A stretch of 63,323 nt of DNA, filler included, from Rhabdomonas costata (lineage: Eukaryota), in assembly GCA_019059605.1 (NCBI GenBank). It is 41 parts of 41 records of this genome, joined end to end, with 100 filler letters (N's around TTAATTAATTAA, not from the genome) between each part and the next. Parts side by side here need not be neighbours in the genome. Positions count along the whole stretch, not along the records: positions 6,193 to 7,639 come from JAHMHO010015707.1; positions 7,740 to 9,189 come from JAHMHO010015708.1; positions 9,290 to 10,736 come from JAHMHO010015709.1; 38 more parts are not named here. One strand, given 5' to 3'. Made by a program: the position numbers and the translations under genes. The notes beneath the pieces were generated by a model. The model was not told where the DNA came from, did no database searches, and was given only the letters and a program-made list of their open reading frames with translations. Every line of letters begins with the position of its first letter. The stretch's first letter is position 1. Shown one piece after another: positions 7,086-9,299 of the stretch.

Positions 7086-7776
7086 AAGTTTGCGAGGGCC
7101 GCGCCGACGATCTGCATGCGGCAAAATACCATCTCCATCTTGTAGCATCAACGGTTTCGAGGGAACGGGGGGGTGCTGGAAGTTGGTCGGAGTCAGTTCG
7201 ATTGCGAACTGTTGTAGGTTCGCAGCCCACCCACCCACACACACACAGAAGGGCCGCGCATCACTAAACGCGGTAGGATGAGGAGCCAGAGCGGCGGGGC
7301 TAACCCAACACAGTCCACAAAATCCACGCGGCAGGCCATTTGTAAGTCATTTGAAAGTGTTTGGTTTAAGGGGTTTTGATGTGAAACGGGTAGATTGCCG
7401 GACGCAAGAAATTACGCAGTCTACATGTTATAAAGCAAATGGAAAAACAATGAGTTTTGCAAATTAACGCTTTATTTGAAAGACAGGATGCCATTGTATG
7501 CGGGATTTATTCTACAACAAAACAACCAACAACCAACAAAACGGAATTTTCACGCGAGAATGGATGAAGATGTGAAAGATGAGCAAGGAGGGAAGAAATG
7601 AAACAGGAAGGGAAGCGTCGGAGAGGAGGCACTGGTTACNNNNNNNNNNNNNNNNNNNNNNNNNNNNNNNNNNNNNNNNNNNNTTAATTAATTAANNNNN
7701 NNNNNNNNNNNNNNNNNNNNNNNNNNNNNNNNNNNNNNNCGTACCCTCACGCGAGTGTGCAGTGTGGTAGTGCTTT

Positions 7777-7833
7777 GCTCGCATGAGATCATGCCACCCA
7801 GCATCCCGATGGATTTCGTCGGTCCATCTGAGC
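7777..7833 (+). ncRNA. Candidate box C/D snoRNA with degenerate C box (copy 2 at 8502-8558)
   Basis: GCTC...ATGAGA (C-like)...CCGA (D'-like)...CTGA (D) with GCTC/GAGC terminal pairing. Confidence 0.4.
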
Positions 7834-7865
7834 CTGGACTTCCGATCGTTTCGAGGAGCTCCTGA

Positions 7866-7923
7866 GATCCTGTACCTCTTCGTTTTGCGAAGAAAAAGAG
7901 GTGCCATGCGGATCCGGACAACT
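7866..7923 (+). ncRNA. Candidate single-hairpin pseudouridylation guide RNA ending in ACA (copy 2 at 8591-8648)
   Basis: Lower stem GATCC/GGATC, internal loop, upper stem GTACCTCTT/AAGAGGTGC, then ACA about 13 nt after the upper stem, followed by a T-rich spacer. Confidence 0.45.
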
Positions 7924-7946
7924 TTTTTCGTCTGTGTTCTTTTTAT

Positions 7947-8013
7947 TTCCAAGTGATGACACCACCCTCCTCCACATCTGAAAAATGAGGCGAACTCGAT
8001 GGGTCTGAAGAAT
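7947..8013 (+). ncRNA. Box C/D methylation-guide snoRNA A
   Basis: Box C GTGATGA 7953-7959, D' CTGA 7978-7981, C'-like ATGAGG 7985-7990, box D CTGA 8005-8008; canonical order and spacing. Confidence 0.8.
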
Positions 8014-8136
8014 GCAAGTGTAGATACCGTGGGTGGGGGTGGATTTGGCAGCGCGACCGAAGAGGGTGCGCTCGAGTGCAGGTCTTTTGTGCAGTAGGAG
8101 CCCGGAGGGAGATCGTGTATGTGGTTTTCTTCAGGA

Positions 8137-8195
8137 AAGGCATTGCGGCTTAACCGCACGGTGCAGAGAGCAACCGAACAATGCCCTTGAGAACA
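8137..8195 (+). ncRNA. Candidate single-hairpin AGA-box pseudouridylation guide RNA (copy 2 at 8862-8920)
   Basis: Basal stem AAGGCATTG/CAATGCCCTT closing a structured interior, followed directly by G-AGA-ACA (AGA at 8190-8192). Confidence 0.55.
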
Positions 8196-8246
8196 CTTTG
8201 TCCGATTGTGTCTCGGCTTCTGGGATTACCAGCAGCTATTTTTTTC

Positions 8247-8314
8247 AGCCTATGATGAGCCCAACCTCCTCCACACTCTGAGAGCATGATCTGGAACGGT
8301 TGTCTCTGAAGGCT
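8247..8314 (+). ncRNA. Box C/D methylation-guide snoRNA B
   Basis: Perfect terminal stem AGCCT/AGGCT, box C ATGATGA 8252-8258, D' CTGA 8278-8281, C'-like ATGATC 8286-8291, box D CTGA 8306-8309. Confidence 0.87.
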
Positions 8315-8671
8315 TGCTCGGTGTATTGTGTGGCTGTGTATCTTGCCGTTCTTTTTCATGTGGGGATTCGAGCGTTGTTGCTTTTTCAGTAGCGGGAAGC
8401 CTGGGCGGTATTTTTCTGTGGGCCAAGTTTAGCGGATTGCGTCGCAGACCCCGTTTTTCGCTGACGTACCCTCACGCGAGTGTGCAGTGTGGTAGTGCTT
8501 TGCTCGCATGAGATCATGCCACCCAGCATCCCGATGGATTTCGTCGGTCCATCTGAGCCTGGACTTCCGATCGTTTCGAGGAGCTCCTGAGATCCTGTAC
8601 CTCTTCGTTTTGCGAAGAAAAAGAGGTGCCATGCGGATCCGGACAACTTTTTTCGTCTGTGTTCTTTTTAT

Positions 8672-8738
8672 TTCCAAGTGATGACACCACCCTCCTCCAC
8701 ATCTGAAAAATGAGGCGAACTCGATGGGTCTGAAGAAT
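8672..8738 (+). ncRNA. Box C/D snoRNA A, second copy
   Basis: Identical to 7947-8013 at offset +725 (box C at 8678). Confidence 0.8.
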
Positions 8739-8972
8739 GCAAGTGTAGATACCGTGGGTGGGGGTGGATTTGGCAGCGCGACCGAAGAGGGTGCGCTCGA
8801 GTGCAGGTCTTTTGTGCAGTAGGAGCCCGGAGGGAGATCGTGTATGTGGTTTTCTTCAGGAAAGGCATTGCGGCTTAACCGCACGGTGCAGAGAGCAACC
8901 GAACAATGCCCTTGAGAACACTGTTGTCCGATTGTGTCTCGGCTTCTGGGATTACCAGCAGCTATTTTTTTC

Positions 8973-9040
8973 AGCCTATGATGAGCCCAACCTCCTCCAC
9001 ACTCTGAGAGCATGATCTGGAACGGTTGTCTCTGAAGGCT
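8973..9040 (+). ncRNA. Box C/D snoRNA B, second copy
   Basis: Identical to 8247-8314 at offset +726 (box C at 8978). Confidence 0.87.
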
Positions 9041-9299
9041 TGCTCGGTGTATTGTGTGGCTGTGTATCTTGCCGTTCTTTTTCATGTGGGGATTCGAGCG
9101 TTGTTGCTTTTTCAGTAGCGGGAAGCCTGGGCGGTATTTTTCTGTGGGCCAAGTTTAGCGGATTGCGTCGCAGACCCCGTTTTTCGCTGNNNNNNNNNNN
9201 NNNNNNNNNNNNNNNNNNNNNNNNNNNNNNNNNTTAATTAATTAANNNNNNNNNNNNNNNNNNNNNNNNNNNNNNNNNNNNNNNNNNNNGTTGTTTTGG

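Follow-up and report, generated by a model that had tools for sequence, protein, structure and literature searches.

What does a contig encode that lacks credible coding capacity and consists of almost the same sequence twice over? The question is raised by positions 7740-9189 of the window analysed here, a stretch of 63,323 bases in which 41 contigs (1440-1459 bp each, mostly at 50-56% GC) are strung together via N/TTAATTAATTAA spacers. These 1450 bp make up one entire contig and, as the window concatenates unrelated contigs, its neighbours there are not its genomic context. From the evidence set out below we conclude, with good though not complete confidence, that 7740-9189 holds nuclear genes for modification-guide small nucleolar RNAs (snoRNAs), clustered and repeated in tandem, most likely from a euglenid.

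The repeat unit and its box C/D cassettes A and B

The contig consists of two head-to-tail units of 725 and 726 bp. A repeat search over 7740-9189 returned 100% identical blocks spaced 725 and 726 apart, and in a full alignment the sole difference between the units was one inserted G at 8923, in unit 2. The repeat was missed by Tandem Repeats Finder (TRF), as the longest TRF period is 500. The contig holds no credible open reading frame (ORF): its longest open frame, 241 aa from stop to stop on the - strand, had no Pfam match, and a search of 1.84 billion representative proteins returned no hit for it. In each unit, T runs of at least 5 nt outnumber A runs of that length by 7 to 2, so that the T-rich spacers are strand-biased. 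A sequence-only reading of this contig had described two near-identical units with T-rich spacers and without a credible ORF, and this description is borne out throughout. None of the other 40 contigs showed similarity to the unit (best blastn match 15 nt, E = 0.13).

Two cassettes, A and B, with the architecture of box C/D snoRNAs lie on the + strand of each unit (Table 1). Their C, D' and D boxes are perfect matches to RUGAUGA and CUGA, and the spacing is guide-length in both, with 18-19 nt from C to D' and 13 nt from C' to D. As a chance control, the pattern TGATGA-N12-22-CTGA-N18-30-CTGA was sought on both strands of the whole 63-kb window; it was matched four times, always on the + strand of this contig, against 0.10 matches expected, and none of 100 shuffles reached four. 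A stricter scan, in which a C'-like box was also required and the length of the terminal stem was reported but used as no filter, found no cassette on either strand of the other 40 contigs. In B, a perfect terminal stem of 5 bp adjoins the boxes. Cassette A folds less than 197 of 200 shuffles (z +1.77), and being so unstructured it fits a guide RNA, whose guides must stay single-stranded. When Rfam was searched in E-value mode, the sub-threshold matches were all to C/D families and aligned box for box: A with sR48 (18.8 bits, cut-off 40), and B with SNORD31 (14.9 bits) and sR1 (12.2 bits), with cut-offs of 40-45. Judged by these features, A and B are convincing candidate box C/D snoRNA genes. 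With two, perhaps three, such genes per unit on one strand, and two units in the contig, the arrangement is that of a tandem cluster.

The two cassettes are paralogues by their sequence, the products of a duplication. By hand count, 43 of 60 alignment columns are identical; the D' guides have an identical 11-nt core, CCUCCUCCACA, in common, and the D guides differ. The distance between this core and D' is 1 nt in A, against 2 nt in B. In box C/D ribonucleoproteins, the nucleotide opposite the fifth guide base becomes 2'-O-methylated; under this rule the one-base offset means that A and B would methylate adjacent nucleotides of one target. Such isoform pairs are reportedly a noted feature of Euglena snoRNAs. 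The duplication is limited to the snoRNAs themselves. An ancient duplication of the whole hairpin-plus-snoRNA module was considered and rejected: for the two upstream regions the score is 15, for shuffles 14.6 +/- 2.2, and 221 of 500 shuffles do as well as the real sequences.

Both cassettes are preceded on the + strand by a polypyrimidine tract ending in AG, at 7923-7952 before A (..UUUUUAUUUCCAAG, followed by U) and at 8239-8251 before B (..UAUUUUUUUCAG, followed by CCU). These tracts look like 3' splice or trans-splice acceptor sites. Across 8350-8460, in the long spacer that closes unit 1, several further TTTTTC motifs recur on the + strand at a spacing of roughly 30-40 nt (29-43). No C box was found in that spacer for the orphan CUGA at its end.

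Table 1. Features of contig 7740-9189, with the best score of each guide stretch in surrogate ribosomal DNA and the number of shuffles that reach it
Feature	Position	Strand	Copy in unit 2	Description	Guide score (shuffles reaching it)
Repeat unit 1	7740-8464	+		725 bp; identical to unit 2 save a 1-nt indel	
Repeat unit 2	8465-9189	+		contig stops 1 nt before the full 726-bp unit; extra G at 8923	
Box C/D snoRNA A (candidate)	7953-8008	+	8678-8733	56 nt box to box; from box scans	
A, C box	7953-7959	+		GUGAUGA	
A, D' guide	7960-7977	+		18 nt	25.0 (7/200)
A, D' box	7978-7981	+		CUGA	
A, C'-like box	7986-7991	+		UGAGGC	
A, D guide	7992-8004	+		13 nt	23.0 (92/200)
A, D box	8005-8008	+		CUGA	
Box C/D snoRNA B (candidate)	8247-8314	+	8973-9040	includes 5-bp terminal stem 8247-8251/8310-8314	
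B, C box	8252-8258	+		AUGAUGA	
B, D' guide	8259-8277	+		19 nt	24.5 (29/200)
B, D' box	8278-8281	+		CUGA	
B, C'-like box	8287-8292	+		UGAUCU	
B, D guide	8293-8305	+		13 nt	22.5 (106/200)
B, D box	8306-8309	+		CUGA	
C/D-like cassette C1 (doubtful)	7783-7831	+	8508-8556		
C1, C-like box	7783-7789	+		AUGAGAU	
C1, D' guide		+			20.5 (156/200)
C1, in place of D' box	7806-7809	+		CCGA	
C1, D guide	7811-7827	+			29.5 (0/200; shuffle maximum 29.0; antisense control 22.5)
C1, D box	7828-7831	+		CUGA	
Hairpin H1	7866-7920	+	8591-8645	then ACA 7918-7920, then a run of six T	
Y-shaped structure H2	8139-8195	+	8864-8920	7-bp basal stem 8139-8145/8179-8185, then AGA 8190-8192 and ACA 8193-8195	
Long spacer	8310-8464	+		T5 runs at 8352, 8382, 8411 and 8454; orphan CUGA 8461-8464 at its end	

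A third cassette and the hairpins

The sequence-only reading went further and proposed a mixed array, in which C/D genes stand together with AGA-box guides. In a genuinely mixed cluster, A and B would be joined by a third C/D gene (C1, 7783-7831) and by a single-hairpin pseudouridine guide or two (H1, 7866-7920, and H2, 8139-8195). Mixed clusters are the rule in trypanosomatids, and we take such a composition to be a real possibility here, albeit one that we do not favour.

Guide targets were sought in surrogate ribosomal DNA (rDNA). A relaxed pattern for the small-subunit (SSU) ribosomal RNA (rRNA), run against metagenomes, yielded 59 loci. A motif of our own choosing marked 40 of these as rDNA, mostly kinetoplastid-type; six fetched loci were checked with Rfam. 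Six guide stretches were scored against the sense strand of 39 loci (221,724 nt), with 200 shuffles each. One kinetoplastid-type metagenomic locus, L104, has a group I intron match within its large-subunit (LSU) rRNA gene (2292-2619; Rfam 50.6 bits, just at threshold).

The degenerate third cassette is present as had been described, and its status as a gene is ambiguous. In its favour, the D guide of C1 was the only stretch to exceed all of its shuffles, and it pairs at 17 of 17 positions (14 Watson-Crick and 3 G-U) with nt ~175-191 of kinetoplastid-type LSU rRNA. In an alignment of five loci (three kinetoplastid-type, two other) the matching sequence occurred only in the kinetoplastid-type loci, which fits a euglenozoan origin of the window. 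Against this, when the entire unit was scanned without bias for antisense matches of 16-mers, the C1 match scored the same as the - strand control (27.5 in both cases), and two other stretches of the unit, 8444-8459 and 8318-8333, scored above it; these were put down to chance, each of them falling within the rDNA spacer of a single unrelated locus. In Leishmania and T. brucei the homologous LSU position carries no 2'-O-methylated nucleotide (Nm), and no LSU5 site lies between 160 and 209. The C box of C1 departs from RUGAUGA at three positions, no terminal stem was found, and in the predicted fold the C-like box and the D guide each lie inside hairpins, which argues against guide function. 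C1 is a doubtful third snoRNA gene on this evidence.

The best antisense stretches of the unit, 8318-8337 and 8444-8464 (+), stand directly upstream of CUGU or CUGA, and no C box was found for them; their rDNA matches are probably due to chance. At 8063-8078 (+), 14 nt (GCGACCGAAGAGGG) agree fully, in sense rather than antisense orientation, with the 5' part of kinetoplastid-type LSU rRNA. As a 16-mer this match scores 27, which is borderline against chance (about 0.3 expected by our own estimate).

Hairpins ending in ACA or AGA are present where they had been claimed, at 7866-7920, at 8139-8195 and before the AGA at 8446-8448. The folds of H1 (7863-7923, z -2.02) and H2 (8136-8196, z -2.24) are stabler than most shuffles, of which 6 and 4 of 200, respectively, were equally stable. 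The rules for single-hairpin H/ACA-like RNAs of euglenozoans, as given in PMC2613932, place AGA 3 nt from the 3' end and 1-3 nt past a perfect stem I of 5-8 bp, with 5-11 nt on the 5' side of the pocket, 13-16 nt for the 3' side, stem I and spacer together, and a perfect stem II of 3-7 bp. H1 agrees with several of these (a 5-bp stem I, a 3-nt spacer, 8+5+3 = 16 nt up to the box, a 6-bp stem II) and departs from others: the box is ACA, not AGA, the 5' side of the pocket has 4 nt, and the pocket strands pair with each other in the minimum-free-energy fold. The pocket of H2 measures 13 nt on one side and 2 nt on the other, which puts H2 outside the rules; its box is AGA, after a 7-bp stem and a 4-nt spacer. 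The hairpin before AGA 8446-8448 was rejected, with more than 16 nt on the pocket-to-box side. Scans of H/ACA pockets against the surrogate rDNA gave just low-complexity or spacer matches and no convincing target.

Of the mixed array as first proposed, the same-strand, tandem, non-coding layout and the two C/D genes are retained; the pseudouridine-guide part is only a possibility, H1 being a near-fit and the other two hairpins failing. By its modelled fold, H1 is possibly a single-hairpin pseudouridine guide or a processing hairpin.

Copy number, guide targets and other contents of the window

A second alternative concerns the tandem duplication rather than the genes: one unit, or a small circle, may have been walked twice around a cycle of the assembly graph. 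The contig spans almost exactly 2.00 units, its ends abut in register, and the assembly is highly fragmented. The units are nevertheless one indel apart, which means that at least two sequence variants exist, and tandem arrays are the described organisation of such genes in this lineage. We regard an assembly product as unlikely; it would in any case bear on copy number only and not on the identity of the genes.

A slightly less likely alternative again is a satellite-like repeat of decayed or orphan snoRNA copies, whose RNAs are not made or have no rRNA target. Over half of the unit is without a recognisable gene. The guides of A and B found no statistically supported target in the 39 surrogate loci, although these come from other lineages and a missing match is weak evidence. 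The best match of either cassette was that of the A D' guide, which agreed in 14 of 15 positions with part of the SSU gene of one Discoba-like locus, L084; kinetoplastid loci have a shorter form of this stretch at the corresponding site. The match is not significant after six tests, and we treat the site as a lead for a possible target of A. This SSU region presumably holds a conserved Nm in yeast. Two further candidates were rejected. In kinetoplastid LSU rRNA, the B D guide matched within an expansion that is not conserved, and the target position itself was mismatched. That the A and B D' guides target the SSU sequence immediately 5' of the CAGGTCTGTGATGC motif was not supported. The target core joined to a universal SSU motif had 0 matches in the metagenomes. 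The 15-base target core alone had 62 matches in viral contigs, a number used just to gauge the match rate of the pattern. The 18-nt complement of the A D' guide was matched 17 times in 596 Gb of prokaryote genomes, by our own estimate the number expected by chance; the matches were bacterial or archaeal and none carried an rRNA motif. As text strings, the guides or their complements met only unrelated matches in the literature.

Nor were orthologous guides found in trypanosomatids: none of the 7-9-mers of these guides occurs in any Leishmania or T. brucei snoRNA of supplementary file 11 of PMC13487219, and a search for orthologues by shared 7-9-mers that covered two of the three supplementary files of PMC3273796 was also negative. 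These results speak for decayed or orphan copies. Set against this are the perfect C, D' and D boxes of A and B, the intact terminal stem of B, and the D' core, whose conservation between diverged paralogues argues for selection on the guide.

The identification of A and B as functional guide genes must itself be weighed against the lack of a supported target and of shared guide 7-9-mers, and against three further points. The C' boxes are degenerate, with two mismatches each; both cassettes do lie where the sequence-only reading had placed them (7953-8008 and 8252-8309), and its label 'canonical' is slightly generous. The terminal stem of A has just 3 bp, with an offset. Finally, nothing in the window reached an Rfam gathering threshold. 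No tRNA or tmRNA was found in the window either.

The last alternative, box motifs arising by chance in a non-coding repeat, has nothing but the shortness of the motifs to recommend it and is very improbable, given two independent cassettes within 725 bp where 0.10 matches are expected per 63 kb on both strands, a guide core common to A and B, and a terminal stem.

Elsewhere the window is gene-poor, with a Pfam family match in 4 of 47 longer open frames: an arylsulfotransferase-like domain, a histidine-kinase ATPase domain, a SAM domain and a retroviral-type protease fragment. The ORF at 24949-26040 (+), with in-frame stops at its flanks, is hybrid histidine-kinase-like (Pfam HATPase_c), and related matches also have a receiver domain. 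Its best named relatives are the EukProt entries RCo012856/7 (62-66% identity, 35-39% of the query) and RCo048132 (38% identity, 95% of the query), and two further proteins, on ~2-kb contigs, are 55-62% identical. RCo identifiers denote Rhabdomonas costata proteins, according to PMC8219788. On the strength of this single ORF the source is probably a euglenid, and, with no Euglena protein among the hits, we lean towards a Rhabdomonas-like one. The sequence relationships suggest that this family is expanded in a euglenid. A 420-aa open frame at 35579-36838 (-) has a bacterial-type arylsulfotransferase (ASST) domain; its best relatives are metagenomic or bacterial and ~30% identical, and horizontal gene acquisition or a contaminant contig may explain its presence. 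The open frame at 28623-29084 (-), with the retroviral-type aspartyl protease motif RVP_2, is presumably a retroelement fragment. On another contig, TRF reported a 52-bp unit in two copies of 98% identity (26997-27100).

A probable guide RNA cluster compared with known systems

For a tandemly repeated cluster of guide snoRNAs, we infer transcription, processing, protein binding and the targets of A and B along the following lines. The array would be transcribed as a multi-snoRNA precursor, from which the T-rich spacers would be trimmed away. The C/D and C'/D' boxes of each RNA would fold into kink-turns and recruit fibrillarin and its partners, and the guides of 13-19 nt that precede D' and D would pair with rRNA, where the nucleotide opposite the fifth guide base would be 2'-O-methylated. 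The A/B duplicates would have kept the D' core, shifted by one base relative to D', so that two neighbouring nucleotides would be methylated; their D guides would have diverged to other sites. C1, H1 (possibly a single-hairpin pseudouridine guide) and H2 would be optional extras in this scheme.

Guide snoRNA clusters of E. gracilis are said to have been described by Russell, Schnare and Gray (2004, 2006), Moore and Russell (2012) and Moore et al. (2018). The cluster resembles them in its compact C/D RNAs on one strand, short spacers, multi-copy linkage and isoforms arising by duplication, the comparison with Eg-m/Eg-p being by description only. It differs in that a pseudouridine guide is unproven here and that the best candidate ends in ACA, not AGA. 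Euglena snoRNA genes are clustered, multi-copy and linked, as stated in PMC2784804, and over 200 Euglena snoRNAs have been identified, as reported in PMC6366073 and PMC7200641. The rRNA of E. gracilis carries 349 modifications, and euglenid ribosomes are the most heavily modified known (PMC7672448).

Trypanosomatid snoRNA genes, according to PMC2613932, are clustered, repeated several times and mixed (C/D with single-hairpin H/ACA-like RNAs), and their polycistronic transcripts are processed. The present genes are likewise clustered and repeated, as in T. brucei, Leishmania and Leptomonas. In contrast to the trypanosomatid RNAs, they have no guide 7-9-mer in common with the Leishmania and T. 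brucei snoRNAs of PMC13487219, and they are shorter than the entries of ~64-150 nt seen by eye in part 1 of 7 of its table; unlike kinetoplastid genomes, the window is gene-poor. At about 55-60 nt, with a symmetric C-D'-C'-D layout and short fixed spacers, they also recall the archaeal RNAs sR48 and sR1. At 12-19 bits against cut-offs of 40-45 they are not members of these C/D small RNA families, and the resemblance is one of architecture only.

The cluster is a plausible find and an ordinary one, as Euglena and trypanosomes are already known to have this layout. A bolder proposal is that the cluster belongs to a primarily heterotrophic, Rhabdomonas-like euglenid, for which no snoRNA would have been described, and that it captures the birth of neighbouring methylation sites through duplication within the unit and a one-base slip of the guide. 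The word 'snoRNA' is absent from the Rhabdomonas costata genome paper (PMC8219788), on which the first part of this proposal leans. We put it forward tentatively, as a whole more likely to fail than to hold.

Current understanding is unchanged by these results, and the gain is at the level of annotation. The guide RNA genes behind the heavy modification of euglenid rRNA are only partly catalogued, and two or three guides would be gained from this cluster once verified. With a source other than E. gracilis, they would count among the first snoRNA genes of a different euglenid. The A/B pair, if verified, would be a clean example of how duplication and a one-base guide shift lead to runs of adjacent modifications. 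Should the heterotrophic source and the guide slip both prove true, the tandem-array system that spawns isoforms, and that is believed to account for the record level of rRNA modification in Euglena, would predate the acquisition of the plastid.

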